A DNA stretch of 64,000 bases, taken from NCBI GenBank assembly GCA_022710185.1, contig JAKLHK010000005.1, positions 65,682 to 129,681 of the forward strand, written 5' to 3'. The position numbers and the translations under genes are program-made. Source of the stretch: Bacteroidota bacterium (GTDB taxonomy: Bacteria; Bacteroidota; Bacteroidia; Bacteroidales; JAGNHN01). The notes beneath the pieces are model-generated. The model was not told the DNA's origin and did not search any database. It saw only the letters and a program-made list of their open reading frames with translations. Shown here piece after piece: positions 20,122 to 56,478 of this stretch; within the stretch, counting starts at the first letter, position 1, and every line of letters begins with the position of its first letter.

Positions 20122-20127
20122 CGCACC

Positions 20128-27992: not shown

Positions 27993-28305
27993 AAAAATTC
28001 CAGCCACACCCAGCAGAGGGCACGTTGCTCAGTTACTCGCCGGACAGCCAGCCCTTGGCCGGGATTGCGCAAGTGTCTGATTATGTGAAACAAGGAATTT
28101 CCCTTGCATATCACAGCGACCATGTGACTAAAAATCTAACCCAAGGTACCCATAGTCCAAATATTCTCAATATCTTTAGGTCTGTGACTTAGGCTCTTGA
28201 TTATCAGACAATGAACACCGTCCGCTAAATGCGAAATATCCGCCATAGGTTCTGATAGCGAAATGTTATGCCCAATGCTGAAAAACAACCTAACGACAAC
28301 ATAAA

Positions 28306-29760: not shown

Positions 29761-30102
29761 TGACAAGTGACAATAAGAAAAATGAATAAAAGCACAGGGC
29801 ATAACAATGTACATATTGCAGGGCGGGGTTTGGAGGTATGCCAACTGCGGATTCTCGCATCGCAGTTCCGTGTCCTTCGGACAGGAACGCTCTCCGAAAT
29901 CCGCCCCGACAACATGTACCAACCGTTACCGCCAAGTGTAAGAGACAGACAACGACATAGAAAAACTGAAAAGTAAACCATTGTGAAAGGACAGAAAAAA
30001 GAAATATTGACTAGACCAGAGACCCGACACTCGAGCCGACCCGATGTTTTTTATTTTTTGCCCACCGCACATTTTTTAAAACAATTGCCGACCCACATTG
30101 CA

Positions 30103-30155
30103 CACATTGCCAAAGCCCCACAAGCCAACGCTACAACCAAAGCTTTGTCAAAGAG
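30103..30155. repeat. 53-bp direct repeat, copy 1 (upstream of the 1668-aa gene)
   Basis: cacattgccaaagccccacAagccaacGctacaaccaaagctttgtcaaagag matches 36982-37034 at 51 of 53 positions. Confidence 0.9.
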
Positions 30156-30191
30156 TGCAATTTTGCCGACACACTAAAAAAGAATATCACT

Positions 30192-36968: not shown

Positions 36969-36981
36969 CCCGATTTGCAAG

Positions 36982-37034
36982 CACATTGCCAAAGCCCCAC
37001 GAGCCAACACTACAACCAAAGCTTTGTCAAAGAG
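36982..37034. repeat. 53-bp direct repeat, copy 2 (downstream of the helicase gene)
   Basis: It matches 30103-30155 with 2 mismatches and begins 14 nt after the helicase stop codon. Confidence 0.9.
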
Positions 37035-37357
37035 CTTGCAAAGCCAACGCACCGAGAAAAATTGTTTTAAAAAATTTGCCGACACTTAAAAAAATAAAAA
37101 ACGCTGACACACAAGCCGACAGAAAAAAGTAAAATGACAATGACACGAAAACTGAATATTAACAATGGTATACAAGACTGGAAGACAGAACACCAGGCGG
37201 TAACAGGCGGTATATTTTATTGCCGAGACAGTGGGTATTTCAGCGTTTCTGCATCTAATAAACTTTCGTGTAACTTGACAGTGAAGTGCTTCGAAATCGG
37301 CAACAAAAACATACCGCCAATCCGTTAGCAGCCATATCAAAATAGCAGGACTAAACT

Positions 37358-37849
37358 ATGAGAATCTTTTTAATTATTTTATTCTTTTTAGCTTTCACTT
37401 TAGTTAATGCCCAATACAAAATGTTTTCAGGTATTCATGATACAATCAACTTAGATTTGTCGACTTTACTGGAGAATACTGGCTTTGGGAAAGCAACATA
37501 CTATTATGATGATATTGAGAAGAAAGATGGTGTTTGGAACTTCTATCCAATGATTAATTTGTCAAAATCATTAACCGCAGTATGGGTCAGCACAATTCCA
37601 GGCCGAAATAATGGCTATACATTTCTTTTAATTTTTGATATTAATACTCATAAAATCTCGGATACCTTGGGACCATATTATGATTCTAGTATTGATGCTA
37701 TTAAGGGCAGAATAAAGAAGAATAATTTAAATTATTTAAAGGTTCGACTATCAAATCCACCGGAAGTAGAGAATTCAAAATATACTATCAGGGAATATAA
37801 ACGTATTGAGGGTAACCTTAAAGAATATAGAAGTCGTGATAATTATTGA
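37358..37849 (+). CDS. Small secreted hypothetical protein
   Basis: 163 aa, AT-rich codon usage. Signal peptide MRIFLIILFFLAFTLVNA followed by Q at +1. No recognisable catalytic motif. Confidence 0.6.
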   Translation: MRIFLIILFFLAFTLVNAQYKMFSGIHDTINLDLSTLLENTGFGKATYYYDDIEKKDGVWNFYPMINLSKSLTAVWVSTIPGRNNGYTFLLIFDINTHKISDTLGPYYDSSIDAIKGRIKKNNLNYLKVRLSNPPEVENSKYTIREYKRIEGNLKEYRSRDNY

Positions 37850-38179
37850 TACGGCTGCTAATAAGTAAGGCTTCGTGCGGCGATAGCCCAGTCCGCCATC
37901 TGGCGGATTGCACGAAATCCCGCGCCTTATGGGGTTTAAGTATCGAAAGCAGTGATCAGGGAAGAGCGAACGACAAGGTTCTTGGATAAGCTAAAGCAGG
38001 CAGGCTGGTTGAAAGGCCAGTAACCGGGTCTTTTGAAAGGATTTAGGGGCGAAATATCTTTCGGGGACTAATCCCGCGCATCAGCGCGTAAACATTACCG
38101 GACCCGGCAGGCGGCAGGATTTGTCAGGCCTCGCTCAACCTAAGCATTGATTTGGGCAGATGCACCCCGGCCCCTCCCC

Positions 38180-40554: not shown

Positions 40555-41337
40555 ATGTCCGTCCCCTGGAAGCTCCGGCAATACCTTAGCCACCTGCGCA
40601 AGGCCAGGGGTCCTTTCCGTCTGCATTCCCCCTTCGTCTTCACCTTTCATCAACGGGTGCTCAGGGGGCGCGGCCTGCCCTCTCCTCCTCCGCTGCTGCA
40701 GGGGCTGAGGCGGGAATGGCTTCAGGACAAGGCGCTCATCACCCATCACCCCCTGGGTTGCGCCGAGGGCAGGGAGTTGAGCGAGCCGGTGGCCCAACTG
40801 GCACGCAGGACGGCCATCAGCGGGGGCGACACCCGCCGGCTGTTCCACCTGGCCGCCTTCCTCAAGCCCCGCACCGTCCTCGACCTGGGCAGCGGGCTGG
40901 GCTTCTCGGCCCTGGCCCTGGCCCTGGGCGCCCCCCAGGCCCGCGTGCTCTCCCTCGAAGGCGATGCCGCAGTGCACGCCCTGGCCGTGGAACGCCTCAG
41001 CCCCCTGGCGCCGCCAGGGCTGCGTTTCCTGCAGGGCGCCTTCCGTGAGCTGCTCCCTGAACTGCTGGAAGGACCGGGGAGGCCCGACCTGGTCTTCCTC
41101 GATGGCGACCACCGCCAGGAGGAGACCATTTACCTCGGCCAGCTCATCCTCCCCCGCCTGAGCCGTCACGGAGTGCTTGCCATCCACGACATCCATGCTT
41201 CGGAAGGGATGCTCGGGGCCTGGGAACGGCTGCGGGAGATGCCCGAGGTCACCGTATCCCTCACCACCTGGAGCACCGGCTTCCTCTTCGTCAACGAAAG
41301 CCTCAGCACCCAGCACTTCCGGCTGAGGTCGTGGTAA
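40555..41337 (+). CDS. Class I SAM-dependent methyltransferase
   Basis: 260 aa. Motif I VLDLGSGLGFSALALA, and later LVFLDGDH, typical of O-methyltransferase-like folds. Confidence 0.75.
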   Translation: MSVPWKLRQYLSHLRKARGPFRLHSPFVFTFHQRVLRGRGLPSPPPLLQGLRREWLQDKALITHHPLGCAEGRELSEPVAQLARRTAISGGDTRRLFHLAAFLKPRTVLDLGSGLGFSALALALGAPQARVLSLEGDAAVHALAVERLSPLAPPGLRFLQGAFRELLPELLEGPGRPDLVFLDGDHRQEETIYLGQLILPRLSRHGVLAIHDIHASEGMLGAWERLREMPEVTVSLTTWSTGFLFVNESLSTQHFRLRSW

Positions 41338-41470
41338 GCGGGCCGGGGATCCACCTCACCCCAAATCGAACATCCGCCCATGCGCCCTTGCGTGCATCGA
41401 ACATCCTACAGGCCGACATTCTTGCTACCTTAGTGGGCTGAATCCCTCCACGGAGGGGAAAAAGGGAAAG

Positions 41471-41926
41471 ATGTTCATCCAGGAGCGACTGCGGGTCAAC
41501 CATCCGCATGCAGTGCACGACACCATTGACGGGGAGACCATCATCGTCAATCTGAAGAATGGCCACTATTACAGTTTCGACAAGACCGGTGTGGCGGTAT
41601 GGGAAGTGATCGCCCGGGGCGGTGACCTGGGCCTGCTGCTTTCCTGCCTGCAGGAGCAGGGCGGGGATAATGCCGTCGGTCTGGGCGATGCCTTGTCGGA
41701 CTTCGTGGCCGCCCTGCTGAGGGAGGAGCTGGTGATTGCCGATGCCTCGCCTTCACCCCCGGAAGGGGCCATGGCCGATGCCGAGGTGAGCGCCCTGGCC
41801 GCAAGGCTGGGCGGCACACCCGAGCCCCCGGTGCTCCATCGCTATGCCGACATGCAGGACATGCTGCTGCTCGACCCCATCCACGACACCGATGAGCGGG
41901 GCTGGCCCCGCGCCCGGATCGAATAG
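41471..41926 (+). CDS. PqqD-family (RRE-like) protein
   Basis: 151 aa. VHDTIDGETIIVNLKNGHYYSFDKTGVAVWEVI matches the PqqD / RiPP recognition element pattern. Confidence 0.7.
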   Translation: MFIQERLRVNHPHAVHDTIDGETIIVNLKNGHYYSFDKTGVAVWEVIARGGDLGLLLSCLQEQGGDNAVGLGDALSDFVAALLREELVIADASPSPPEGAMADAEVSALAARLGGTPEPPVLHRYADMQDMLLLDPIHDTDERGWPRARIE

Positions 41927-41937
41927 GGCATTCTTCC

Positions 41938-43122
41938 TTGATCATGCATTTCCAGGCTAAAGACCAGGGCTACGGCCACCCTTTTCCGGATCCCGCGCAG
42001 TTGCTGCTGCTGAAAGCAGCCTTGTGCGAGGGGGAAGAGGCCATCCTCGCCTGGCAGGCCTGGCAACAGGCTTTCGACCTGAAAGACCCCCTGGATGCCG
42101 GTTCATACCGCACCCTCCCACTGCTGTACCGCAACCTCAGCCGGGTGCTCCCCCAGGAGCCCCTGCTCCCCAAGTTGAAAGCGGCCTACCGCCAGTCGTG
42201 GTACCGCAACCAGCAGGTACTGCACCGCGGACTGCCGGCGCTGCGCCTGTTGCGTGGGGCGGGTATCGAGGTGATGCTGCTGAAAGGCGCGGCCCTGGGG
42301 CCGCTCTGGTACGGTGATGCCGGGGTCAGGCCCATGGCTGACCTGGACGTGATGGTTTGCCCGGCGGACGCCTGCAGGGCCCTGGACCTGCTGAAGGAGG
42401 CCGGCTGGACCCCTGAAGAACCGGGAGCGGTGGAATATAACCTGAGGTACGGCCGCGCCATGGGACTGCGCGATGCGGAAGGCTGGGAGCTCGACCTGCA
42501 CTGGCATGCGCTGTTCGAGGGGCTGCGCCACGAAGGAGTGGACCTGTGGCGGAATGCGGCGCCGATGGAACTGCAGGACCTTACGGTCAAAGTGCCCGAA
42601 CACGCCATGATGCTGGTGCACGTCATGGTGCATGGGCTCCGCTGGAACCCCGAGCCCCCCATCCGCTGGATCCCCGACAGCCTGCAGGTGATGCGGGCCA
42701 TGGGGGCCGGGGACTGGGAGCGCGTCACGGAGCTGGTGAGGGCATACCGCATCCAACTGCCCATGCTGCAGGCGCTGGGGTACCTGAAACAGCACTTTGG
42801 AGCGGAGGTGCCCGAGCACATCCACCTTGCGCTATCCAACATGAGTACCGGCTATGCGGAGCGTGCGCTCTGGAAGGCGCAGCTGCGTCCAGGGGCGGAG
42901 CGGCTGCCGGAAGCCTTCTTCCCCCGGCTGCACTACCTCTTCGGAGTGTATATGCGGCAGAGCGGGCGTTCGGGATTGCTCCCCAACCTGGCTGGTTTCC
43001 CGGCCTTCCTGGCTTACCGGACCCGCGGAAAATCACGGCTGCAACTGCTGGCCTATTATGCAGGACGGGCCTGGAGGGGCCGGAGGAAAGACACCGCTCA
43101 CCCCCACCCCAACACCCCATGA
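41938..43122 (+). CDS. Uncharacterised nucleotidyltransferase family protein (NTP_transf_5-like)
   Basis: 394 aa. The MLLKGAALGPLWYGDAGVRPMADLDVMV motif is typical of this family. Confidence 0.7.
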   Translation: MIMHFQAKDQGYGHPFPDPAQLLLLKAALCEGEEAILAWQAWQQAFDLKDPLDAGSYRTLPLLYRNLSRVLPQEPLLPKLKAAYRQSWYRNQQVLHRGLPALRLLRGAGIEVMLLKGAALGPLWYGDAGVRPMADLDVMVCPADACRALDLLKEAGWTPEEPGAVEYNLRYGRAMGLRDAEGWELDLHWHALFEGLRHEGVDLWRNAAPMELQDLTVKVPEHAMMLVHVMVHGLRWNPEPPIRWIPDSLQVMRAMGAGDWERVTELVRAYRIQLPMLQALGYLKQHFGAEVPEHIHLALSNMSTGYAERALWKAQLRPGAERLPEAFFPRLHYLFGVYMRQSGRSGLLPNLAGFPAFLAYRTRGKSRLQLLAYYAGRAWRGRRKDTAHPHPNTP

Positions 43123-43126
43123 AGCC

Positions 43127-44815
43127 ATGCCCGAGCTGAAAACAACCCGCCCTTTGTTCGCCCGCCCGGCCTGGAGGTATTTCCTGAGGGCCTACCAGGG
43201 CATGCACCGGCGCCTGGCCTTCACGGCACTGGGCTCCTCGGCCCAGGTGCTGCTGCTGGTGCCCATGCTGCTGCTGGTGAAGTACGCTTTCGACACCGTC
43301 ATCCCGCAGGGCGGGGTCAGGACCCTGATCGTCATCGGTCTGGGCATATTACTCCTGCGCATCCTGCACAGCCTGCTGGCCCTATGGATGCGGCACATCA
43401 GCATAGGGATCATCAACACGGCCATCCTTCGCATAAGGCAGGACCTGCTGGACCGCCTCTACGCCCTGCCCCGGTCCTTTCACACGCGGGAGGACCCCCG
43501 GCTGCTGCATGCACGCATCGTGCAGGACAGTGAACGCCTCACCCAGTTAAGCAATTCTCTCATCTCCAAAATACTGCCATCGGGCATCATCAGCCTGGCG
43601 CTGATCGTACTCTTGCTCGTGCTCAACCCCTGGCTCACGGGCTGCATCCTGGCCCTGGGGCCGCTCATCTATTGGAGCAACCGTCGCATGGGCCACCGCA
43701 TCCAGGGCAAGGTGTTCTCCTTCCAGCGCAGCTTTGAGCGATTCAGCCAGGGCATGCTGTTCGTGCTGCGTTACCTCGACCTGACCCGCAGCCAGTCGGC
43801 GGAAGCATTGGAGGTGGAAAGGCAGCGGGCCACCCTCGACCGGCTGAGGCAGGAGACCGGCGATATGGCCTATAGTTTCGCCCTCAATGCCCAGCTCCAG
43901 GAGCTCCTGAGTTCACTGAGCGGGATCCTGATCATCATCCTGGGCGGGGCGGCCGTTGCCCTGGAATGGATGAGCCTGGGGGATTTCGTGGCCTTCTATC
44001 TCGCTGCCGGCTTCCTCAACCGTCATGTCGGCTTCATCACCTCCTCCCTGCCCGAGGTGGTCGCCGGCAACGAGTCACTGATCACCTTGCACCGCCTGAT
44101 GGACCTTCCGGACGAGCTCCCTTATCAGGGCCGCAGTTTCCCGGGCTTTGACGGGAGCATCCGCATGGAAGGCGTGGTTTTCGGGTATGGTGAAGAAGCG
44201 GTGCTGCGTGGGGTGGACCTGGCGCTCAGACCAGGCGCCCGGGTAGCCGTGATCGGCCCCAATGGCGCGGGGAAGACCACCCTGATCCAGCTCCTCCTGG
44301 GATATTACCGGCCGTGGGGCGGCATCCTGAAGGCCGGGGGGCACCCCTACGAGGGCCTGGACATGGTCCGGCTGAGGCGGGGCATCGGGCTGGTGGCCCA
44401 GAATCCTTCCCTGTTCTCCGGCACCGTAAAAGAGAACATCCTCTACGGTAATGAGGCCTTCGAAGCAGAGGGCCTGGGCGGTGCCCTGGAGATGGCCGGG
44501 CTGAACGAATGCCTGGGGCGCCTGCCCCATGGATTGGATACGGAGATAGGGGAAGACGGGGTGAGGCTGAGCGGGGGGGAGCGCCAGCGCATCGCCATGG
44601 CCCGGGCACTGGTCCGCCGTCCTCCCCTCCTCATCCTGGATGAGCCGACCAACCACCTCGACCTTACGTCGGTGGACCGCATCATGGAAACCCTGAACCA
44701 CCTGCCCTGGAACCCCGCCATCCTGCTGATCAGCCATGATATGCGCCTGGTGCGGCATGCCACGGAGGTGTATACCCTGCAGGGCGGCCTGCTCATCCCC
44801 ACCGGTAAACCCTGA
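43127..44815 (+). CDS. ABC exporter, fused permease/ATPase (MsbA-like)
   Basis: 562 aa from the ATG at 43127. It has an N-terminal 6-TM domain, Walker A GPNGAGKTTL, signature LSGGERQRIAMARAL and Walker B LLILDEPTNHLD. Confidence 0.88.
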   Translation: MPELKTTRPLFARPAWRYFLRAYQGMHRRLAFTALGSSAQVLLLVPMLLLVKYAFDTVIPQGGVRTLIVIGLGILLLRILHSLLALWMRHISIGIINTAILRIRQDLLDRLYALPRSFHTREDPRLLHARIVQDSERLTQLSNSLISKILPSGIISLALIVLLLVLNPWLTGCILALGPLIYWSNRRMGHRIQGKVFSFQRSFERFSQGMLFVLRYLDLTRSQSAEALEVERQRATLDRLRQETGDMAYSFALNAQLQELLSSLSGILIIILGGAAVALEWMSLGDFVAFYLAAGFLNRHVGFITSSLPEVVAGNESLITLHRLMDLPDELPYQGRSFPGFDGSIRMEGVVFGYGEEAVLRGVDLALRPGARVAVIGPNGAGKTTLIQLLLGYYRPWGGILKAGGHPYEGLDMVRLRRGIGLVAQNPSLFSGTVKENILYGNEAFEAEGLGGALEMAGLNECLGRLPHGLDTEIGEDGVRLSGGERQRIAMARALVRRPPLLILDEPTNHLDLTSVDRIMETLNHLPWNPAILLISHDMRLVRHATEVYTLQGGLLIPTGKP

Positions 44816-44837
44816 CCCACACGATACGACAGCCATC

Positions 44838-47321
44838 ATGGATGCCCCACGCAAGACCGAATTCGAACAGCAGCATTTTTTCCGGCAGAGCCTGAGCGGC
44901 TATGCACAAGCCTCGGAAGCCCGGGGGGAGCGTAAGTTCTATTACCAGCTCGCCGGTACCGTGGTGTGCATCGCCTTTGCCGGGGATGCCATGGTCCCCC
45001 TGCTGAGCCCGGCCCTGGAACACCTGCGCATCCCCGATCCCGGCCGCTATAACGCGCTGTTCTGTGTATGGGACAGCGAGAGCACCGGCGTGAGCATGCC
45101 TCCCCCACCCTGTGCCTGGTCGGCCTTCACCGACCGGGGCGACATCTGGGGCTTCGGCAGCCCGCGCATCCGCACCGCATGGCACTGGGGCGAGTTTTCG
45201 GTGAACGTGATGGACCTGGAGACCGGCACCGCGGTGTACTGGGTGGAGACCGCCCGGGCCCTGCCTTACTGGGCCGTCGCCTCCCCCTTCCGCACCCTGT
45301 TCCATTGGTGGATGGAGAAGAACGGGGGGCAACTATTGCATGCCGCAGCGGTTGGCACCGCTGAGGGGGCCGTGCTGATCACCGGCAAGGGCGGAGTGGG
45401 GAAATCATCGACCGCCTTGAGTTGCCTTAACGAGGGAATGTACTATATAGCAGATGATTACCTCTTCGTTACCGAATACCCTGAACCCAGGGTACACAGC
45501 CTGTACGCTACCGCCAAGCTGAACTGGGATGACCTGGAGCGTTACCCCCGCCTGGCTCCCTGGATCGCTCCCCCTATGAAGGAAGGCCAGGAAAAGGCCA
45601 ACCTGTTCCTGTATCCCGGACTGAAGGACAGCATCATGCCGCACCTCCCCTTGCGCGCCATCCTCACCCCGGTATTCGCCCCGGGCCCCGATACCAGCCT
45701 GGCCAGCGTACCCTTCTGGACCCTCCGCGGCAATATGGCGTTCACTACCATGTCGCAGCTCCCTTATGCCGGGAGGCAGACCCATGAATACATCGGGCGC
45801 CTCTGCCGCAGCCTGTCCATCTATGAGCTCAGGCTCGGGCAGGAGCGCGACCGGGTTCCCGGGGTACTGCGTCAGTTGCTGGGTTCGCCCCCCGGGGAAC
45901 TGCCGGCCCAGCCCGACATCCGCCAGGCCGGGGGACAGCGCCCGCTGATCAGCGTGATCATGCCGGTATACAACGGCGAGGTTTTCATAAAAGAAGCCAT
46001 CGCCAACATCCTCTCCCAGGGATACCCCGCCCTGGAGATCATCATCGTCAATGATGGCTCCACCGACCGCAGCGAGGAGATCATCCTGGGATTGGACTGC
46101 GATGTGCGCTATTTCCGACAGGAGAATGCCGGGCCGGCCGCTGCACGCAACCGGGGCATACGGGATGCCTCGGGAGAGTTCATCGCTTTTTTGGACGTGG
46201 ACGACCTCTGGCCCGAGGACAACCTGCATTACCTGGTGAGCGAGATACAACAGGATCCTGGCTGCCTGGTGGTACATGGGTACGCCCAGTTGCTGCAGCA
46301 AGACCCGGAGAGCGGGGCCTACGGCTATGCCGGCAACCCCGGGGAATCCTTCCCGGGCTACATCGGAGCCGGGCTGTACCGCAGGGAAGCCTTCCAGCGG
46401 GTAGGGCTGTTCGACACCATGATGCGCTTCGGGGAGGATGCCGATTGGTTCAAACGCGCTTCGGAACTGGAGATCCCGCTGAAAAAGCTGGAGGAGGTGA
46501 CGCTGTATGTGCGGCGCCACGGGGGCAATATGACCCAGGGCAAGGACCTGGTGGAGCTCAACGCCCTCAAGGTGTTCAAGAAATCGCTGGACCGCAGGCG
46601 GGGCAAGCTGACCATTCCCGGGCTGGAGGACAAGCAAGTGCTGCCCCTGAGCGTGGTGCTGCCGTGCTACAATGCCGAAGCCTATCTGGGCGAGGCCCTC
46701 GACAGCATCCTCAGCAGGGAGGCCATCCCGCAGGAGATCATCGTGATCGACGACGGGAGCATCGACGATTCCCTGGCCATTGCCCAAAGCTATCCACCCC
46801 CGGTGAAGGCGGTGAAACAGGCGAACCGCGGTGCCGCGGCGGCACGCAACCATGGCATACTGCTGGCCTCCCAGGAGTTCCTTAGTTTTTTGGATGCCGA
46901 TGATATCTGGGTCAATGCCATGCCGGGGACCCTTTTCAAGGCCCTGCAGGAAGATCCGGGGCTGGACATGGTGTTCGGGATGGTGGAGCAGTTCATCAGT
47001 CCTGAGCTGCCGGAAAGCCAGCATACCCACCTCAGGGAGGAGCTGAAGACCATGCCCGGCCTGCTGATGGGTGCCATGATGGTCCGCAGGGCCTCCTTCG
47101 ACAGGGTAGGCCCGCTGGACGAGCAGCTGAACCTGGCCGAGTTCATCGACTGGATGAGCCGGGCGGCCCAGCTTGGGTTGAAATACCAGGTGATCCCCGA
47201 TCTGGTGATGCGGCGCAGGATACACACCAGCAACCAGGGACTGCTGAAGAAGGACAAGATGCAGGACTATACTGCCGTGGCCAGGGCCGCCCTACAGCGC
47301 CGAAGAGACCCGAAGCCATGA
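44838..47321 (+). CDS. Tri-domain protein: HprK-related kinase-like domain plus two family-2 glycosyltransferase domains
   Basis: 827 aa from the ATG at 44838. LHAAAVGTAEGAVLITGKGGVGKSSTALSCL...IADDY (P-loop at nt 45384-45407), then ISVIMPVYNGE...IIVNDGSTD...LDVDD, then LSVVLPCYNAE...IVIDDGSID...LDADD. Confidence 0.8.
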   Translation: MDAPRKTEFEQQHFFRQSLSGYAQASEARGERKFYYQLAGTVVCIAFAGDAMVPLLSPALEHLRIPDPGRYNALFCVWDSESTGVSMPPPPCAWSAFTDRGDIWGFGSPRIRTAWHWGEFSVNVMDLETGTAVYWVETARALPYWAVASPFRTLFHWWMEKNGGQLLHAAAVGTAEGAVLITGKGGVGKSSTALSCLNEGMYYIADDYLFVTEYPEPRVHSLYATAKLNWDDLERYPRLAPWIAPPMKEGQEKANLFLYPGLKDSIMPHLPLRAILTPVFAPGPDTSLASVPFWTLRGNMAFTTMSQLPYAGRQTHEYIGRLCRSLSIYELRLGQERDRVPGVLRQLLGSPPGELPAQPDIRQAGGQRPLISVIMPVYNGEVFIKEAIANILSQGYPALEIIIVNDGSTDRSEEIILGLDCDVRYFRQENAGPAAARNRGIRDASGEFIAFLDVDDLWPEDNLHYLVSEIQQDPGCLVVHGYAQLLQQDPESGAYGYAGNPGESFPGYIGAGLYRREAFQRVGLFDTMMRFGEDADWFKRASELEIPLKKLEEVTLYVRRHGGNMTQGKDLVELNALKVFKKSLDRRRGKLTIPGLEDKQVLPLSVVLPCYNAEAYLGEALDSILSREAIPQEIIVIDDGSIDDSLAIAQSYPPPVKAVKQANRGAAAARNHGILLASQEFLSFLDADDIWVNAMPGTLFKALQEDPGLDMVFGMVEQFISPELPESQHTHLREELKTMPGLLMGAMMVRRASFDRVGPLDEQLNLAEFIDWMSRAAQLGLKYQVIPDLVMRRRIHTSNQGLLKKDKMQDYTAVARAALQRRRDPKP

Positions 47322-47327: not shown

Positions 47328-47376
47328 TATCTGATATCAGATATCTGATATCTGATATCAGATATCTGAAATCTGA
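47328..47376. repeat. Heptamer array TATCWGA x7 in mixed orientation (palindromic blocks)
   Basis: tatctga tatcaga tatctga tatctga tatcaga tatctga aatctga fills almost the whole 59-nt gap between convergent stop codons (47321 and 47381). It contains the perfect palindrome tatctgatatcagata. Confidence 0.9.
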
Positions 47377-47380: not shown

Positions 47381-47935
47381 CTACTTCGTCGTCTCCCCGC
47401 CCATCGCGGTGAACACGCTATCAACCGGCTCCCAGAGCTCGATCTTGTTCCCTTCAGGGTCCATAATGTGGATGAACTTCCCGTAGGAGTATTCCTCTAT
47501 GGAATCCAGGATGGTGACCCCGCTCTCCCGGAGCTTGCGGACCAGTCCTTCCAGGTTCTGGACACGGTAATTGATCATGAACTCCTTGGTGGATGGGTCC
47601 ATATAATCCGTGCCTTCATGGAAGGGGCTCCATTGAAGGTAATTGATCTCTTCGGGCCGGTGGGCGTTCCTGAACTCGAAGGGGGAACCGTAGTCATTGA
47701 TGGCGAGGCCCAGGTGCTTCCCATACCAGGATTTGATCGAGGAAGGGTCCTTGGCGCGGAAAAAGATCCCGCCTATCCCGGTAACCTTAGGGGTGGTATC
47801 ATCCATAATTATTTGGTTTTCTGATGTTTCAATCATATCTTTCGTTGTATCCCGGTCACACCCTGCACCTGGGCTGCATGAACTGAGCGCGAGGGACAGG
47901 CCGAGCCAGAGGGAGGCAGGCAACAGTTTATTCAT
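47381..47935 (-). CDS. VOC (glyoxalase/bleomycin resistance) family lipoprotein
   Basis: 184 aa. Lipobox LALSSC in the signal peptide, and a VOC-like core (GIGGIFFRAKD ... HIMDPEGNKIELWEP). Confidence 0.75.
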   Translation of the reverse strand: MNKLLPASLWLGLSLALSSCSPGAGCDRDTTKDMIETSENQIIMDDTTPKVTGIGGIFFRAKDPSSIKSWYGKHLGLAINDYGSPFEFRNAHRPEEINYLQWSPFHEGTDYMDPSTKEFMINYRVQNLEGLVRKLRESGVTILDSIEEYSYGKFIHIMDPEGNKIELWEPVDSVFTAMGGETTK

Positions 47936-47967: not shown

Positions 47968-49824
47968 TCAATCCGGGCCGAATACCTCACCGAAACGGGG
48001 ATCACCTGCGAGGTGGGCCTGGGAGGCTTTATCGAAAAGATAGTCCCCGATCACCAGGAAGTCCATTTCGGTGCGCATGAAACAGCGGAAGGCGTCGTCG
48101 GGGGTACAGACGATGGGCTCCCCCCTCACATTGAAACTGGTGTTGACGATCACGGAGGTCCCCGTGAGGCGTTCCATTTCCTTCATTACCTGCCAGTAGC
48201 GGGGATTGTCGCGGCGGTTCACGCTCTGCAGCCGGGCGGAGTAATCGATGTGGGTGACCGCAGGGATATCGGAACGCCCGAAGTACAGGCGTTCGTAGAG
48301 CTCCTTGCGGTCGTAGCCTTCGGGCAGGGGGATGCAGCGCTGACGGTCCACGGGCACTACAAGGAGCATATAGGGAGAAGGGGTACTCAGCTCGAAGTAC
48401 CGGGCAACGTCCTCTTCCGGCACCGAAGGGGCGAAGGGGCGGAAGCCTTCCCTGTACTTGATCTTGAGGTTCATTTTCTTCTGCATGCCCGGGTTACGGG
48501 CATCACCCAGGATGCTGCGGTTGCCCAGGGCCCGGGGGCCGAACTCCATGCGTCCCTGGAACCATCCCACCACTGCCCCATCCGCGATCTTCTGCGCCAC
48601 GGTACGGGCCAGCTCGTTGAATTCCTCGAATTTCTTGGCCTGGGCGCCATAGCGACGAAGGAGGCTTTCGGTTTCCTCCGGAGGAAAGGACGGGCCCAGC
48701 AGGGCAGCATTCATGGCATCGGGCTGTTGCGGGCGGCGGTCTCTCCCTTCCCAGAGGTGCCCACCGAGCAGGGCGGCGCCCAGGGCACCCCCGGCATCTC
48801 CGGCTGCGGGTTGAATCCAGAACCCATCGAAGATACCGGACTGCAGCAGCTTGCCATTGGCCACGCTGTTCAGGGCCACACCCCCGGCCATCACCAGGTT
48901 GGATGACCCCGTAAGTCTCCTGGCTGTGGCCGCCAACAGGAGCACGATCTCCTCGGTGACCTGCTGGATGGCCAGGGCCAGGTTCATATGGTCCTGGCGC
49001 AGGGGATCGGATTCTTTGCGGGGGGGCATCCCGAAGAGGTCGGTCCAGCGGCGGTCATCGCACATCCTGAGCCCGGTGGCAAAACGGAAATAGCGCATGT
49101 TCAGCAGCAGGGAGCCGTCCTCGCGGATATCGCACAGCTCCCGGCGGATGATGTCAGCAAACGCTTTCGTCTGTGGATCCTGGGCCAGGCCGTAGGGTGC
49201 CAGCCCCATCAGCTTGTACTCCCCGCTATTGACCCTGAACCCGAGGTACCAGGTAAAGGCTGAATACAGCAAACCCACGGAATGTGGGAAGTGCAGCTCA
49301 CGGAGGATGCGGATGTCGCGCCCCTGACCATGACCGATGGTGGTGGTGGCCCATTCGCCCACCCCGTCGATGGTGAGGATTGCCGCCTCCTGGAATGGGG
49401 AAGGATAGAAGGCGCTGGCGGCATGGGAGAGATGGTGCTCCGGAAAGAGCAGGGGTACTTTTCCGGTGCCGAACTGAGCCAATTCTTCCCTCAGCATGCG
49501 TTTCATGAACATCTTCTCCTTTATCCATACCGGGATGGAGGTAAGGAAGCTGCGATAACCTTTGGGTGCGAAGGCATGGTAGGTCTCCAGCAGGCGCTCG
49601 AACTTCAGGAAGGGTTTGTCATAGAACACTACCGCGCTCAGTTCGTCGTAGGGGATGCCCCCTTCCCGCAGCACATAGCTGACGGCATGGCGGGGGAAGC
49701 CGGGGTCGTGCTTGCGGCGCGTGAAGCGCTCCTCCTGGGCGGCCGCTATGATGCGGCCATCGACGACCAGGGCGGCGGCACTGTCGTGATAAAATGCGGA
49801 GATCCCGAGTATGGCGTCCGGCAT
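47968..49824 (-). CDS. Carbamoyltransferase (NodU/CmcH/SxtI family)
   Basis: 618 aa. The N-terminal ILGISAFYHDSAAALVVDG...AAQEERFTRRKHD and the overall pattern are typical of the family. Confidence 0.88.
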   Translation of the reverse strand: MPDAILGISAFYHDSAAALVVDGRIIAAAQEERFTRRKHDPGFPRHAVSYVLREGGIPYDELSAVVFYDKPFLKFERLLETYHAFAPKGYRSFLTSIPVWIKEKMFMKRMLREELAQFGTGKVPLLFPEHHLSHAASAFYPSPFQEAAILTIDGVGEWATTTIGHGQGRDIRILRELHFPHSVGLLYSAFTWYLGFRVNSGEYKLMGLAPYGLAQDPQTKAFADIIRRELCDIREDGSLLLNMRYFRFATGLRMCDDRRWTDLFGMPPRKESDPLRQDHMNLALAIQQVTEEIVLLLAATARRLTGSSNLVMAGGVALNSVANGKLLQSGIFDGFWIQPAAGDAGGALGAALLGGHLWEGRDRRPQQPDAMNAALLGPSFPPEETESLLRRYGAQAKKFEEFNELARTVAQKIADGAVVGWFQGRMEFGPRALGNRSILGDARNPGMQKKMNLKIKYREGFRPFAPSVPEEDVARYFELSTPSPYMLLVVPVDRQRCIPLPEGYDRKELYERLYFGRSDIPAVTHIDYSARLQSVNRRDNPRYWQVMKEMERLTGTSVIVNTSFNVRGEPIVCTPDDAFRCFMRTEMDFLVIGDYLFDKASQAHLAGDPRFGEVFGPD

Positions 49825-49831
49825 GGCAGGA

Positions 49832-49984
49832 TCAGAACAGGGTATAGATGAAGGGGGCCACTGCTGACCCGGCCGTCAGCACGATGAGGAGGCCGAAAAG
49901 CAGCAGCACAAGGATGAGCGGCAACAGCCAGAACTTCTTTCTGACGCGCAAAAAACCCCAAAGGTCCTTGAGAAATTCCATCAT
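49832..49984 (-). CDS. DUF5989 / SxtK-like small membrane protein
   Basis: 50 aa, MMEFLKDLWGFLRVRKKFWLLPLILVLLLFGLLIVLTAGSAVAPFIYTLF. I trimmed it from the 114-aa ORF. It lies next to the carbamoyltransferase. Confidence 0.7.
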   Translation of the reverse strand: MMEFLKDLWGFLRVRKKFWLLPLILVLLLFGLLIVLTAGSAVAPFIYTLF

Positions 49985-49988
49985 GGGT

Positions 49989-50378
49989 TCAATACAGTTG
50001 TTCCAGGTCGGAAGAGGTGAAGGTATGATCGCGGGTGTGGAAGACCGAGCTCCGGGCCTTGCGGAAACTCCGCAGCTGCAGGGGATCGCGGCCCAGGGCC
50101 CTGCGGGCCAGTCCCAGGGGGATGACGAATACCCCATAGATGAGGGTGAGCAACACCAGGGACGCCCCCTGCCCAAGGAGATCAGTCAATGGGTACCAGG
50201 CCCTGGCGAAGGGGTAATAAGCCGAAGGCCAGGCCATCAGCAGCAGCATGGCCCCGATAATCCAGGGTACCAGGGTGATATTGTCGGTGAAGTGCGCGAC
50301 GATCAGCAGGATCAGCACGAGGGCCATTCCGGCATCGCGGCATTCCTTGCGTCCATACTGCCTGGCAGGCTTATGCAT
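49989..50378 (-). CDS. SxtJ-like membrane protein
   Basis: 129 aa with hydrophobic segments. It sits upstream of the SxtK-like and carbamoyltransferase genes, as in sxtIJK-type trios. The call relies on context and general pattern. Confidence 0.55.
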   Translation of the reverse strand: MHKPARQYGRKECRDAGMALVLILLIVAHFTDNITLVPWIIGAMLLLMAWPSAYYPFARAWYPLTDLLGQGASLVLLTLIYGVFVIPLGLARRALGRDPLQLRSFRKARSSVFHTRDHTFTSSDLEQLY

Positions 50379-50387
50379 ACAGCAAAG

Positions 50388-51926
50388 CTATGGTTTTTCC
50401 CTCTCCCCCTGCGCCTCTTCGGCCCCGTGTTTCTGCGCCTCATCGCTACGCACCCGCGGGAGCATGGCCGATACGAGGGCCCTGGCGAAGCGCTCCTGCC
50501 CATAATCGGTGAGGTGGATGAAATCCCAGTACAGGAACCCGCTATCCTCAAACGCAGGCAGAATGCGGTGCATATCCACCAGGGGTACCCGGGCAGAGCT
50601 TGCCGTAACGCGCATGATATTGAGGTTGTCGAGGTGAAAGGAGCGGATCTCGTTCACCGGTTCAGCAAGCAGGAAGGGCGTCCCTCCCCTTTCCCTTGCC
50701 AGCCGGACCATGGCGTTCAGGTTATGCCCGAAGCGCGGGTTGCCTGAATCGTTGAAGCCCAGGTTGATGACCACATACCGCGGTCTTAGTCCGGCCCAGT
50801 CATCCCGGTACATCTCCAGCAGCACATCGGAGTTCATGCCCGAGATTCCGGCATTGATGGCCTCTACCGCCCTGCCTCCCAGGGAATCCGAGAGCATACG
50901 GGCAAAGCGGCTGGCCAGGGTCAGGCTATCCGCGGAGGCCCCTGCGCCCCAGGTCTGGGAGGAGCCGATGAACAATACCCGGAGTGTGCTGTCCCCGTCG
51001 GCAGGAGCGTATTGCTGCCGGATGCGCTGGCTGACCTCCCTGCCTTCCTCGATGGTGGAGACCCGCTGGCCCCATTTGACCATCCAGCGCGGGGGATAGC
51101 GCTCGATCCCGACCGTCAGGAAGAAGAGGGAAAGGGCGGCAGTGAGTACGGTGATGTTCACGGACAGCGGCAGCAGCCATCGCCGCTGACCGTAAAGCAG
51201 CAGAAAGGCTGCATTGGAGAGGACGAGGAAAGCCAGGTAGATCAGGTAATGGTGGTATTTTTTACTGAAATCCTCCCCAAATACTTGTTGGTCGGTCCCC
51301 TGGAACAGGCGGACATCGTCCACCTCAGTGCGGCGTCCGCTGCCCCTGAGCCCCAGCAGGGGTACTGCCGGGCCATTCTCGCGGTGTACGGCGAGCAGCG
51401 TGCCATCGAGAAAGGCGCGTGTTTCCCGGGCCTCCCTTTCCAGGCGGAGCTCATGCCATACCTCCGGGACCTGCCAATGTCTTATAAGATCCTTATCCGT
51501 GAACTCCATGGACCGCAGTCCGAGCCAGGCCGGAGCATGGGCCGGATGGGCAGAAAGGCGCAGCGCATAGAGCTCATCGTCCAGCCCTGCATAGTATACC
51601 ACCAGGAAGGCCGAGTCTTCCAGCCGGAAGCGGAGCGTGAGGCGGTCGTAGGCGAGCGTATCCTTGAGGAAAACTTCCTGGTAGCCATGCCAGGTGCCCA
51701 GGTCCAGGCGATGGTGGGCCAGGGCACGGTAGGTCAGCACGAAGGACCAGGCCCCCATCAGGCCTTTCTCCAGTTTCACCTTGCTGCTTTCCCAGCGGGC
51801 ATTTCTCCAGATCGTATTGGTATAGGCAGTATACAGCCCATGGAACGAAAGCAGGAAAGCCAGTAATATGACATTAAATATCAGAATATTACGTACAGTA
51901 AACTTGCGATTGCCCTGAGGGTCCAT
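50388..51926 (-). CDS. Membrane-anchored SGNH/GDSL-family hydrolase
   Basis: 512 aa from the ATG at 51926. It has an N-terminal TM, and the C-terminal blocks are VLFIGSSQTWGAG (I), INLGFNDSG (III) and DFIHLTDYG (V). Confidence 0.7.
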   Translation of the reverse strand: MDPQGNRKFTVRNILIFNVILLAFLLSFHGLYTAYTNTIWRNARWESSKVKLEKGLMGAWSFVLTYRALAHHRLDLGTWHGYQEVFLKDTLAYDRLTLRFRLEDSAFLVVYYAGLDDELYALRLSAHPAHAPAWLGLRSMEFTDKDLIRHWQVPEVWHELRLEREARETRAFLDGTLLAVHRENGPAVPLLGLRGSGRRTEVDDVRLFQGTDQQVFGEDFSKKYHHYLIYLAFLVLSNAAFLLLYGQRRWLLPLSVNITVLTAALSLFFLTVGIERYPPRWMVKWGQRVSTIEEGREVSQRIRQQYAPADGDSTLRVLFIGSSQTWGAGASADSLTLASRFARMLSDSLGGRAVEAINAGISGMNSDVLLEMYRDDWAGLRPRYVVINLGFNDSGNPRFGHNLNAMVRLARERGGTPFLLAEPVNEIRSFHLDNLNIMRVTASSARVPLVDMHRILPAFEDSGFLYWDFIHLTDYGQERFARALVSAMLPRVRSDEAQKHGAEEAQGEREKP

Positions 51927-51937
51927 GGTCGGGTGGT

Positions 51938-53179: not shown

Positions 53180-53208
53180 ACCTTTATCCGACATTCCGGG
53201 GAGCCGCA

Positions 53209-54255: not shown

Positions 54256-54407
54256 GCCTGGGGGATGTACGATGTTCCCATGGGCGCATGGGCGCATTTT
54301 CGATTTATCGCCCTAATGAGTCCCTGATCATGTTTGATAAGCAATGTTAACCCGCCTCCGCAAAGAGCGGAAATGTTCATATTGAGCATACCACAGCCGC
54401 CAGGCTA

Positions 54408-56384: not shown

Positions 56385-56478
56385 GGGTGGGGATTATGCT
56401 CAAAAACGCTACATTCGCAGGGTACAGGTTGTCCAATACCCGGAACGAAGGTAAGAAATACTCCATCCACCCTCCCTG

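Follow-up and report, generated by a model that had tools for sequence, protein, structure and literature searches.

The gene cluster at 40555-47321 of the window (the whole stretch of 64,000 nucleotides from a Bacteroidota bacterium that was analyzed) raises the question of what its enzymes work on, which a preliminary description had framed as peptide or glycan. A check of the open reading frames (ORFs) of the window confirmed five co-oriented genes on the plus strand and their coordinates. The conserved cassette comprises four of them, at 41471-47321, for PqqD/RRE, NTP_transf_5, ABC exporter, and kinase::GT2::GT2 proteins, the last a fusion of a kinase domain with two family-2 glycosyltransferase (GT2) domains.

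Gene content and layout

The features on which the analysis draws are as follows (coordinates, strand, identification).

40555-41337, +, class I SAM-dependent methyltransferase (Pfam Methyltransf_24, 47.2 bits against a cut-off of 26)
41471-41926, +, PqqD-family RRE protein, 151 aa, extended at the C terminus (PF05402, 29.0 bits against 23.4)
41819-41917, +, conserved motif of the RRE tail (column statistics, 71 locus proteins and 128 representatives)
41938-43122, +, NTP_transf_5, a Pol-beta-fold nucleotidyltransferase-like enzyme (PF14907, 132 bits); likely start, the ATG at 41944
~43127-44815, +, ABC exporter, a half-transporter (TMD and NBD) of the MsbA/ABCB type (ABC_membrane, ABC_tran)
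44838-45872, +, P-loop kinase domain with the HprK/PEPCK fold, first 345 aa of the fusion protein (fold, motif)
45339-45341, +, His of the kinase motif (motif)
45384-45407, +, kinase P-loop GKGGVGKS (motif)
45453-45458, +, kinase Asp-Asp pair (motif)
45939-46610, +, first GT2 domain (PF00535; DxD in FLDVDDLW)
46641-47321, +, second GT2 domain (PF00535/Glyco_tranf_2_3, residues 638-838; DxD in FLDADDIW)
47337-47369, no strand, terminator-like hairpin (15 pairs, perfect, GATATC-rich; terminator-like scan)

The operon is tightly packed, with intergenic gaps of 11, 4, and 22 nt, because its last two genes, for the exporter and the fusion protein, truly start at internal ATGs. The hairpin sits where the operon and a VOC-family gene converge and is a probable bidirectional terminator. 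The methyltransferase had been counted as a member of the cluster, which its distribution does not bear out: it is separated from the PqqD gene by 133 nt, and blastp found no counterpart across 84 related loci. Methyltransferases of several families are accessories in other loci (Methyltransf_24 in 2 of them), and that of the window is possibly a lineage-specific sugar-tailoring accessory neighboring the cassette. A polysaccharide locus does adjoin the cluster, at 48-61 kb, as described earlier; this adjacency is not conserved across the 84 related loci, and the cassette occurs without polysaccharide neighbors in Methylovulum (L083) and other loci.

The last ORF (approximately 44838-47321) had been described as an HprK-related gene, which captured its kinase domain and overlooked the two complete GT2 domains fused to it (PF00535, E of 1.5e-61 in two stretches). 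Profile scores of the kinase domain are low: Pfam Hpr_kinase_C reaches 28.5 bits, under its cut-off of 33.3, the NCBIfam models HprK_rel_B and hpr-ser reach 27.9 and 26.4 bits, and the comparison with HprK 1jb1 gives an E of 2.4e-3. The assignment is upheld by fold and motif, in that (i) the AlphaFold2 (AF2) model (pLDDT 91) matches PEPCK (Foldseek E of 5e-9) and HprK/P (E of 5e-6), (ii) hhalign pairs the domain with the lasso kinase BsfK at 94.7% probability, and (iii) the catalytic motif H-x14-G-x2-G-x-G-K-S-x15-D-D is intact in the window (H168, G183, G186, G188, K189, S190, D206, and D207), with its columns invariant in alignments of relatives. Its spacing is that of BsfK, whose motif residues are H148, G163, G166, G168, K169, S170, D186, and D187 (PMC10368454). 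Both GT2 domains retain DxD motifs and, judged from these, look active. The first is fused to the kinase in nearly all relatives, and the 600-aa architecture of kinase and GT2 has 786 homologues; the split form in L088, where kinase and GT2 are adjacent separate genes, and the stand-alone kinase of L085 are a Rosetta-stone link between the two activities. The second GT2 is fused in the window and in 13 other loci (818 to 865 aa; L016, L018, L021, L024, L026, L032, L034, L039, L044, L045, L057, L078, and L080) and is a separate downstream gene elsewhere.

The PqqD assignment is supported by both profile (PF05402 above its cut-off) and fold. The lasso RRE TbiB1 is the best PDB match of the window RRE by sequence (E of 1.6e-3) and also by fold (5v1v, TM of 0.81 on target); the lasso proteins TbiB1 and TfuB1 together supply its best sequence and fold matches, the family profile reaches the lasso RRE BsfB1 with 52 bits, and the only NCBIfam models matched are those of lasso_PqqD (lasso_PqqD_Bac, 31.6 bits against a cut-off of 80). 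An identical protein (P0121) occurs in a Bacteroidales MAG. The profile score of the NTP_transf_5 enzyme likewise agrees with the description given of it. Its motif KG...R.M.D.D...DLHW...HG..N...RW..D is at least 90% conserved in 73 cassette copies, and with such acidic motifs the enzyme looks active; a 392-aa protein (P0291) is identical to the window enzyme, and NCBIfam and PDB searches returned no family and no solved homologue. The exporter was rightly called MsbA-like, its best PDB matches being ABCB1 and MsbA; it carries no peptidase domain, and its NCBIfam matches all lie far below cut-offs.

Distribution of the cassette and the tail of the RRE protein

Relatives of the cassette were found in 98 of 185,579 species genomes, from at least 10 phyla, and synteny, on which the preliminary description had made its reading depend, is strong. 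The gene order is fixed as PqqD, NTP_transf_5, the ABC gene where present, and kinase::GT2. Among 85 related loci, including many on truncated contigs, PqqD was present in 70, NTP_transf_5 in 69, kinase::GT2 in 75, and the exporter in about half (43 to 49). The kinase domains of relatives share 50 to 60% identity, and the cassette is horizontally spread. Further GT2 genes, 175 in all, were counted in 69 loci, and additional glycosyltransferases and sulfotransferases usually lie downstream; sulfotransferases are the commonest accessory (18 of 105 genes), and radical SAM/SPASM genes account for 9 of the 105 and are found in approximately 10% of loci. No published description of the cassette was found in the searchable literature, by which measure it is probably undescribed, and it probably makes a product decorated with sugar and phosphate.

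The absences reported earlier were confirmed: a scan of large ORFs between 38 and 64 kb turned up neither an asparagine-synthetase-like cyclase nor a transglutaminase-like protease, and a small-ORF check upstream of PqqD and in every intergenic region of the 85 loci revealed no conserved candidate precursor. A lasso-B2-family peptidase lies near only 2 of 84 loci, both from Smithella, where it stands beside the cassette.

The earlier gene list passed over the conserved C-terminal tail of the PqqD protein. The RRE (residues ~12 to 90) is followed by an ordered linker with a helix (103 to 113) and by the tail (117 to 149), whose 30-residue motif is conserved more strongly than the RRE itself (71 locus proteins; 128 representatives). 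The consensus is [FY]-E-P-P-V-L-x-K-Y-[ST]-D-M-Q-D-L-L-L-L-D-P-I-H-[DE]-V-D-E-x-G-W-P-x-x-K, and the window copy reads PEPPVLHRYADMQDMLLLDPIHDTDERGWPRAR, where the first position of the leader-like pattern is Pro and not aromatic. A phmmer search with the tail alone recovered 1378 clusters (50%-identity representatives), almost all of them ~150 aa long and carrying the motif C-terminally; the matches below 110 aa were contig-edge fragments or a split ORF. In four Lentimicrobiaceae and Bacteroidales loci, a canonical kinase::GT2 lies beside an RRE protein with a different tail. At its start, the tail sets an aromatic residue, Pro, and Leu at i, i+3, and i+5, like the lasso leader motif YxxPxL, a pattern ([FY]xxPx[LIVM]) that chance would place somewhere in the 60-residue extension with a frequency of roughly 5%. 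The AF2 model has a strand at 122 to 125 (pLDDT ~85) and low confidence for residues 131 to 151; from this confident strand, the [FY]xxPxL segment may dock in cis into the leader groove of the RRE. The tail is, in our view, a candidate built-in leader-like handle followed by a modified or recognized segment. Among the 128 representatives, its Tyr is kept in 88%, with Phe as the alternative, and the Ser/Thr that follows in 74% (Ala in the window copy), and no hydroxyl residue is universally conserved; therefore, Ser phosphorylation of the tail, as by lasso kinases, cannot be the general rule.

A proposed glycan on a peptide handle

With the fused GT2 domains and the conserved tail in view, the choice is no longer between peptide and glycan; what is to be asked about is a glycan assembled on a handle that is a peptide or protein. 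The reading that we put forward, with about even confidence, is a lasso-derived tailoring cassette that performs peptide- or protein-directed phosphoglycosylation. It would descend from the tailoring genes (B1, kinase K, NTP_transf_5 N, and exporter D) of lasso clusters whose peptides are phosphorylated or phosphoglycosylated; the genes that form the lasso itself (precursor A, protease B2, and cyclase C) would have been lost and glycosyltransferases acquired, among them one that in every case is fused to the kinase or encoded next to it. From the observed gene content, domain folds, catalytic motifs, synteny, and tail conservation, we infer the acceptor and the following chemical steps: (i) the RRE protein would present a peptide segment; (ii) the kinase would phosphorylate this segment or a sugar already on it; (iii) the NTP_transf_5 enzyme would join the first sugar via that phosphate, in the manner of PsmK and PsmN on pseudomycoidin; (iv) the GT2 domains, with accessory GT4, GT10, sulfotransferase, and methyltransferase, would extend and decorate the glycan; and (v) the ABC exporter, where present, would move the product out. 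The product would be a decorated oligosaccharide joined through phosphate to a peptide, and this peptide may be the tail of the RRE protein. To our knowledge, the chemistry of PsmN has never been demonstrated in vitro. PsmK phosphorylates the C-terminal Ser of pseudomycoidin, PsmN is needed for the one or two hexoses added on this phosphate (PMC6993621), and the RRE BsfB1 strongly stimulates BsfK (PMC10368454).

Since no separate precursor is conserved and the RRE protein bears a tethered leader-like strand and a near-invariant tail, the tail suggests itself as the peptide worked on, and we propose it as the acceptor tentatively. Several observations run counter to this: RiPP cores are usually far less conserved than this tail, an MsbA-type exporter could not let through an uncut protein of 150 aa, and a protease is absent from 82 of 84 loci and the exporter from about half. 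The lack of a universal hydroxyl residue, the Pro of the window copy, the chance frequency of the leader-like pattern, and the different tails in four loci weigh on the same side.

A glycan pathway with no peptide acceptor, in which a phosphorylated, sulfated, or methylated oligosaccharide is built on a lipid carrier or small molecule and flipped or exported by the MsbA-type protein, while the PqqD-like protein serves, via its tail, only as a scaffold or regulatory subunit organizing the kinase, NTP_transf_5, and glycosyltransferases, is a possibility that we take seriously and nonetheless doubt. The cassette is mostly glycan machinery (2 to 7 GT2 domains, GT4, GT10, and PMT_2-like membrane proteins, together with epimerases/dehydratases, sulfotransferases, and methyltransferases), the exporter is as similar to lipid flippases as to peptide exporters, the fold of the kinase agrees throughout its length with that of the small-molecule kinase PEPCK, the tail offers no universal Ser or Thr, and the window cassette adjoins a polysaccharide locus. 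Such neighbors, however, are not conserved. A priming phosphoglycosyltransferase (Bac_transf) occurs in only 3 of 84 loci (±10-kb flanks), no Wzx- or Wzy-type family is among the top 25 of the co-oriented accessory-gene census, and the Wzy_C/TPR protein of the window is matched in only 4 loci. PqqD/RRE domains are peptide binders, and here the RRE is specifically lasso-B1-like and the kinase carries the motif seen in peptide kinases. It is unlikely that the substrate is instead a separate small peptide, encoded elsewhere or too short or divergent to detect, which would be phosphorylated, glycosylated, and exported with the RRE tail merely recruiting the enzymes. Every lasso-type precedent has a separate precursor, the radical SAM/SPASM genes of some loci (the 9 of 105 above) are typical of peptide maturation, and the size of the exporter fits a peptide; yet the 85 loci, spanning at least 10 phyla, hold no conserved small ORF, the short tail-only matches reduce to fragments or a split ORF, and a tethered strand, if docked in the leader-binding groove, would compete with a separate leader.

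Two further explanations were ruled out. Membership of the HPr-rel-A system, which had been raised for this cluster, or of the SynChlorMet cassette is highly improbable: there are weak local P-loop matches to HprK_rel_B, HprK_rel_A, and ScmC, faint PF27840 (ScmC) matches in some homologues, and weak matches of radical SAM/SPASM genes of some loci to ScmE and ScmF, but the scores (27.9, 13.9, and 14.5 bits against 200, 200, and 125, respectively) are far below cut-offs and span only ~50 residues around the P-loop, PqqD_rel_X gives zero match even at an E of 10, and a fused GT2 with NTP_transf_5 is a different architecture. Hardly credible at all is a functionless remnant of a decayed lasso cluster, which might be suggested by an RRE, kinase, nucleotidyltransferase, and exporter of lasso type that lack a cyclase, a protease, and a precursor; conservation excludes it, given that ~100 species from at least 10 phyla share these genes in one order at 50 to 60% kinase identity, catalytic motifs are intact, operons are tightly packed, and 1378 clusters carry the tail.

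Comparison with known systems

The closest systems to the proposed phosphoglycosylation cassette are the lasso clusters of paeninodin (pade), pseudomycoidin (psm), and Bradymonas (bsf), and the parallel drawn earlier with phosphorylated lasso peptides is apt, the RRE being lasso-B1-like, the kinase motif equal to that of BsfK, and the companions shared. NTP_transf_5 enzymes and sulfotransferases accompany phosphorylated lasso clusters (PMC8498205, PMC6993621, PMC10368454), and in Firmicutes lasso clusters sulfotransferases are reported to stand beside kinase and nucleotidyltransferase genes (PMC8498205). In common are (i) a discrete PqqD-type RRE (B1), (ii) a peptide kinase of HprK type whose H/G/G/G/K/S/D/D motif is identically spaced, (iii) an "uncharacterised nucleotidyltransferase" (N), PsmN being likened by role and not by sequence, (iv) an MsbA-type ABC exporter (D), (v) sulfotransferases often alongside, and (vi) an aromatic-xx-P-x-L element that resembles a leader and adjoins the RRE. 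Unlike these clusters, the cassette has no Asn-synthetase-like cyclase, no separate precursor, and no B2 protease (except in the two Smithella loci), its kinase has a GT2 fused to it or beside it, with 2 to 7 further glycosyltransferases downstream, and its RRE is lengthened by 60 residues that include the near-invariant tail. Of the preliminary reading, the PqqD and HprK assignments, the synteny, and the lasso parallel stand, and HPr-rel-A and the membership of the methyltransferase fall away.

HPr-rel-A (TIGR04352 HprK_rel_A, TIGR04355 HprK_rel_B, and PqqD_rel_X, which we take to be TIGR04353) also combines an HprK-related P-loop protein with a PqqD-family partner, but all three models are unmatched at or near cut-off by the cassette proteins, and we know of no GT2 fusion or NTP_transf_5 among its components. 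With HprK/P and PEP carboxykinase, the cassette kinase shares the P-loop kinase fold, its AF2 model aligning to PEPCK across both lobes and to the catalytic domain of HprK/P, and its P-loop sequence motif matches HprK. It differs in that it has no HPr or PTS context, only ~50 residues are alignable in sequence, and its N-lobe has invariant motifs of its own (FTDRGDIWGF and HW.E.S.N..D). Mycofactocin (MftB RRE, MftC radical SAM, and MftF GT2) resembles the cassette in joining a PqqD-type RRE and a GT2 in one pathway, in its peptide-derived molecule that finally bears an oligosaccharide, and in the radical SAM/SPASM genes of some cassette loci. The match of the fused GT2 to MftF, among its better NCBIfam matches, remains under the cut-off (141.6 bits against 280) and is typical of generic GT2 similarity, MftA-, MftD-, and MftE-like genes are lacking, and radical SAM genes are limited to ~10% of loci; in contrast to mycofactocin, the cassette possesses a kinase and an NTP_transf_5 enzyme.

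Gene layout of the window locus

Open reading frame (ORF) and profile searches recovered the five co-oriented genes that the preliminary description had placed at 40555-47321; these genes and the structure at the 3' end of the operon are as follows.

Features of the window locus
40555-41337, methyltransferase of the Methyltransf_24 family (47 bits)
41471-41926, PqqD protein (29.0 bits against a cut-off of 23.4)
41938-43122, NTP_transf_5 protein (Pfam PF14907; 132 bits against a cut-off of 31)
43127-44815, MsbA/ABCB-type ABC exporter (ORF from 42854, true start at ATG 43127; profile and PDB comparison)
44838-47321, HprK-like region with two GT2 domains (ORF from 44736, probable start at 44838, MDAPRK)
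47337-47369, perfect hairpin of GATATC repeats (TCAGATATCTGATATCTGATATCAGATATCTGA) with a 15-pair stem, operon 3' end

Once the starts are corrected, gaps of 11, 4, and 22 nt separate the last four genes, and the methyltransferase gene lies 133 nt upstream of the PqqD gene. The hairpin separates the convergent ends of the cassette and of a VOC/glyoxalase-family lipoprotein gene (47381-47935, minus strand). An Rfam scan of 38.0-48.5 kb of the window returned nothing relevant, and a sigma-70-type promoter scan of the window gave no informative result. Recorded proteins identical in sequence exist for PqqD (P0121) and NTP_transf_5 (P0291), both labelled as belonging to a Bacteroidales bacterium MAG.

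The second gene of the cassette scores above the gathering cut-off of PF14907 and keeps the acidic residues of a nucleotidyltransferase (the D.D and DLHW motifs, at least 90% conserved), by which it can be assigned to the NTP_transf_5 family at the level of sequence. Comparison of the ABC exporter with PDB and NCBIfam entries did not distinguish between peptide and lipid exporters.

The kinase::GT2 fusion and the RRE protein

The Hpr_kinase model touches only residues ~200 to 250 of the last ORF (28.5 bits, below the cut-off of 33.3), and the C-terminal 460 residues comprise two complete GT2 domains (PF00535; E = 1.5e-61, two stretches), both of which keep the DxD motif. The earlier view of this gene as HprK-like holds for its kinase domain and had overlooked the GT2 domains. 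The HprK assignment is borne out by fold matches of the AF2 model, by the catalytic motif, and by hhalign comparison with BsfK, the kinase of the Bradymonas lasso cluster. The AF2 model of the N-terminal 345 residues (pLDDT 91) matched, in Foldseek and at a probability of 1.0 each, both lobes of PEPCK (E = 5e-9) and the catalytic domain of HprK/P (E = 5e-6), and the domain aligned with BsfK at an hhalign probability of 94.7%. The motif residues H168, G183, G186, G188, K189, S190, D206, and D207 are invariant or nearly so in the family alignments A1 and A3, and their spacing is identical to that of H148, G163, G166, G168, K169, S170, D186, and D187 of BsfK, which are important by mutagenesis (PMC10368454). 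The prediction of an HprK/PEPCK-fold P-loop kinase with a His, a Walker-A GxxGxGKS, and an Asp-Asp metal site is sound at the superfamily level. Nearly all of the 786 kinase-domain homologues are ~600 aa long and alike in their kinase-plus-GT2 architecture, with 50 to 60% identity across phyla; the double-GT2 fusion of the window recurs in 13 other loci, and the kinase stands alone in one locus (L085) and in another (L088) has its own gene immediately 5' of that of its GT2.

The PqqD assignment has likewise stood, through the profile score, a sequence match to lasso RREs (PqqD-type RiPP recognition elements), and a fold match. The RRE domain spans residues 12 to 90, and its sole NCBIfam matches are two lasso_PqqD models, of which lasso_PqqD_Bac scores 31.6 bits against a model cut-off of 80. 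By sequence, its best solved homologue is the lasso RRE TbiB1 (E = 1.6e-3); the AF2 model (pLDDT 84) superposes best on TbiB1-leader complexes (5v1v and 5v1u) and TfuB1 (6jx3), with TM scores of ~0.8 on the target (0.81 for 5v1v), and a profile of 71 cassette PqqD homologues matches the Bradymonas lasso RRE BsfB1 at 52 bits.

The cassette PqqD proteins are ~150 rather than ~90 aa long, since the RRE is followed by a variable stretch and then by a 30-residue motif, here called the tail, that is better conserved than the RRE itself ([FY]-E-P-P-V-L-x-K-Y-[ST]-D-M-Q-D-L-L-L-L-D-P-I-H-[DE]-V-D-E-x-G-W-P-x-x-K). A tail-only search of 1.84 billion representatives returned 1378 clusters, almost all of them of 140 to 160 aa with the motif at the C terminus. 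Hits of 31 to 92 aa were considered as stand-alone tail peptides and dismissed, as they start inside the RRE, lie at a contig edge (L085), or represent a split ORF that overlaps a PqqD gene of 105 aa (L086).

The best-conserved positions in the first part of the motif are an aromatic residue, Pro, and Leu at i, i+3, and i+5. Lasso RREs bind the recognition motif YxxPxL of lasso leaders (PMC10368454), the spacing of which the tail reproduces, a pattern as short as [FY]xxPxL having a ~5% chance of accidental occurrence; in the window protein, Pro replaces the aromatic residue. The AF2 model is confident to about residue 130, P-x-L being immediately followed by a beta-strand (122-125), and the invariant LLLDPIH-D-DE-GWP stretch is modelled at low confidence. 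Such a pattern is that expected for a leader docked in cis with an exposed segment, and we infer from the model that docking of this kind may occur. No Ser, Thr, or Tyr is universal in the tail: Tyr is present in 88% and Ser/Thr in 74%, with Ala in the window.

Four loci from Lentimicrobiaceae and Bacteroidales MAGs (L046, L049, L054, and L055), from which NTP_transf_5 is absent, carry tandem pairs of an RRE protein and a kinase::GT2 protein. In these, the RRE that precedes the canonical kinase::GT2 (602 to 604 aa) bears a different conserved tail (LHAYKNIQEKYAHPCGVKEI). The loci also hold a P-loop-less kinase paralogue of 520 to 546 aa, preceded in L049 and L054 by an RRE whose GWP-type tail is degenerate. 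The second RRE with its different conserved tail, together with the P-loop-less paralogue, suggests that the tail behaves as an exchangeable payload. Co-variation of tail and kinase was discarded as proof of tail recognition, since the duplicated pairs are mixed, the canonical kinase accompanying the alternative tail and the P-loop-less paralogue the degenerate one.

Distribution, surroundings, and the search for lasso genes

In a scan of one genome per species, relatives were found in 98 of 185,579 species, belonging to groups that include Bacteroidota, Nitrospirota, Smithella, Syntrophales, Desulfobacterales, Acidobacteriota, Gemmatimonadota, Verrucomicrobiota, Lentisphaerae, Alpha- and Gammaproteobacteria, Dadabacteria, Spirochaetia, and Saccharibacteria; the one cultured carrier is the methanotroph Methylovulum psychrotolerans Sph1. 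Synteny in other genomes is upheld, the order in related loci always being PqqD, NTP_transf_5, (ABC), kinase::GT2.

Genes counted in 85 loci, many of them truncated
PqqD: 70 loci
NTP_transf_5: 69 loci
Exporter: 43-49 loci
Extra GT2 genes: 69 loci, 175 copies

Accessory families in related loci, by number of genes (105 co-oriented genes)
Sulfotransferase: 18
Radical SAM: 9, of which 6 with SPASM
GT4: 7
Sugar epimerase/dehydratase: 6
Methyltransferase: 5
PMT_2: 5
GT10: 2

None of the accessory radical SAM proteins reached an NCBIfam family cut-off. The methyltransferase, originally counted as a member of the cluster, is not conserved beside the cassette, and the polysaccharide locus that the cassette was said to abut is real in the window and not conserved elsewhere (polysaccharide neighbours and methyltransferase, 0 to 4 of 84 loci). 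In Methylovulum, the cassette lies alone between housekeeping genes. The glycan locus of the window (47968-60873, mostly on the opposite strand) and further features of the window are listed below.

Other features of the window
4700-20600, complete dcw cluster (mraZ, rsmH, ftsL-like, ftsI, murE, mraY, murD, ftsW, murG, murC, ftsQ, ftsA, ftsZ)
26054-27646, second PMT_2 protein, with TPR
28000-38000, 10-kb island of 31-35% G+C in a genome of ~60% G+C, including a 163-aa protein without family
28306-29760, HATPase_c_3 (MORC-like) protein, 484 aa
30192-35198, 1668-aa protein with a sacsin-type ATPase domain
35199-36968, SF1 helicase with AAA_11/AAA_12 domains
47968-49824, NodU/CmcH-type carbamoyltransferase
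47968-60873 (within), two GDSL/SGNH proteins
51938-53230, PMT_2 GT-C protein
54408-56384, Wzy_C/O-antigen-ligase protein with TPR repeats
58025-59479, GT4
59476-60873, Bac_transf priming transferase
60913-63996, type-IX-secretion CHU_C/SprB-repeat protein

The low-G+C island looks like a horizontally acquired defence-type island, and the dcw cluster and type-IX-secretion protein fit a Bacteroidota origin. Elsewhere, in Balneolaceae and Rhodohalobacter, a tRNA-gene-like sequence (shadow translation GFEP..F..RRS..LSY) lies directly upstream of the PqqD gene (L001, ~7965-8066; L009, ~7223-7430; L070, ~7927-8063) and may mark a tRNA-linked site at which the cassette integrated. The GT2 genes of Balneolaceae are followed by soluble paralogous proteins of 420 to 480 aa without a Pfam match (L001, 15052-17840; L009, 13369-16202; L069, 6550-7917), which share the motifs FTDQLI, HIRQGDT, PWNT, FSDG, and GTQ; their HxRxGD motif is, we assume, reminiscent of GT11/GT23/GT65-type fucosyltransferases.

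The reported lack of lasso enzymes and of a precursor was confirmed. No Asn_synthase match occurs in the large ORFs at 38-64 kb of the window, the Asn-synthetase family is not among the 25 commonest families of the 105 accessory genes, and all-against-all clustering revealed no recurring cluster of the size of such an enzyme. A phmmer search of all window reading frames with BsfB2 of the Bradymonas cluster found no transglutaminase-like protease, a family also missing from the 25 commonest accessory families; the same query against all locus ORFs placed a PF13471 protein near the cassette only in two Smithella loci (L024 and L025). A conserved precursor was found neither among ATG-started ORFs of 12 to 110 aa within 700 nt upstream of every PqqD gene nor among all intergenic ORFs of 15 to 109 aa in the 85 loci, and the 133-nt gap of the window contains none; the small ORFs that clustered were limited to shadow ORFs, translations of tRNA genes, and clade-specific ORFs. 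The leader-like [FY]xxPxL element was found only within the RRE protein itself.

The two Smithella MAGs carry an extra module 2 to 8 kb upstream of the cassette (L024, 2710-5899; L025, 15-4468), which holds another NTP_transf_5 (432 and 397 aa), an HprK-like kinase standing alone (330 and 335 aa), and, as a member of the lasso B2 peptidase family, a Transglut_core3 protein, with no visible cyclase or precursor; in L025, this region additionally encodes a B12-binding radical SAM enzyme and a DUF362 protein. The lasso-B2-family peptidase hints that the tail may be cleaved in some lineages.

A putative phosphoglycan pathway and its alternatives

In the biosynthesis of pseudomycoidin, the HprK-like PsmK phosphorylates the C-terminal Ser of the precursor (PMC6993621), and PsmN, an 'uncharacterised nucleotidyltransferase', is required for the addition of one or two hexoses to the phosphate (PMC6993621; reviewed in PMC8498205), and BsfB1, the RRE of the Bradymonas cluster, has a strong stimulating effect on the kinase (PMC10368454). 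Since the cassette holds players of these types together with an exporter, and since the acidic motifs of NTP_transf_5 and the DxD of GT2 are kept, we read it as probably the tailoring half of phosphorylated or phosphoglycosylated lasso clusters, detached from lasso formation and combined with glycosyltransferases. The pathway could then run as follows: (i) the RRE would present a peptide segment; (ii) the kinase would phosphorylate it; (iii) NTP_transf_5 would form a phosphate-linked first sugar; (iv) GT2, GT4, and GT10 enzymes would extend the glycan; (v) sulfotransferases and methyltransferases would decorate it; and (vi) the ABC protein, where present, would export the product.

The most economical acceptor would be the RRE protein's own tail, though caution is advised: the tail is highly conserved and has no hydroxyl residue that is universal, and a protease is absent. 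We put forward, as an unlikely proposal, that the RRE protein acts as a self-contained carrier: its RRE domain would grip the leader-like strand of the same protein, and its exposed invariant tail (DPIH-DVDE-GWP) would serve as covalent primer for a phosphate-linked, sulfated/methylated oligosaccharide assembled by the kinase, NTP_transf_5, and the glycosyltransferases. Such priming by protein would amount to cytoplasmic phosphoglycan synthesis without a lipid carrier or a separate precursor gene, a doubtful proposition in our estimate, and the acceptor might be a non-hydroxyl residue, e.g., His or Asp. A precursor encoded elsewhere in the genome, unlinked to the cassette, we consider improbable.

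A pathway directed at a glycan alone, in which the RRE protein would act as a scaffold, is plausible but less likely than the tailoring reading; it is weakened in that a priming phosphoglycosyltransferase is nearly absent from the flanks examined and that the ancestry of both the RRE and the kinase is of the peptide type. That the cassette is a decayed lasso remnant was rejected given its conservation. Membership of the HPr-rel-A system, raised in the preliminary description, was also rejected, with HprK_rel_A (TIGR04352) at 13.9 bits over 45 residues and HprK_rel_B (TIGR04355) at 27.9 bits over 56 residues, both below cut-offs of 200, and with no match of PqqD_rel_X (presumably TIGR04353), the PqqD-family model of that system, at E values up to 10. 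The same verdict applies to SynChlorMet: ScmC (TIGR04249/PF27840) reaches 14.5 bits against 125, a radical SAM gene is absent from the window cassette, and the accessory radical SAM proteins of other loci score at most 77 bits against the ScmE cut-off of 400.

If the tailoring reading is true, a kinase and a nucleotidyltransferase-fold enzyme acting on a peptide handle would be a new way to start a glycan, and the union of recognition element, leader, and modified segment in one polypeptide would be a new RiPP logic. The compactness of the system (4 to 8 genes) and the availability of a cultured methanotroph make the function of NTP_transf_5 directly testable. The searchable literature on PF14907, HprK-related kinases, HPr-rel-A, SynChlorMet, and PqqD with glycosyltransferases yielded lasso peptide papers only, in which the cassette is undescribed. 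Its component families are all known; what appears new is the way they are combined, the fusion of the kinase to GT2, and an RRE that carries a built-in tail. Work on RRE domains, HprK-like peptide kinases, and NTP_transf_5 proteins has until now dealt with them solely as lasso cluster accessories, whereas here the three travel together without lasso machinery, welded to glycosyltransferases, across at least 10 phyla and more than 1000 metagenome protein clusters.
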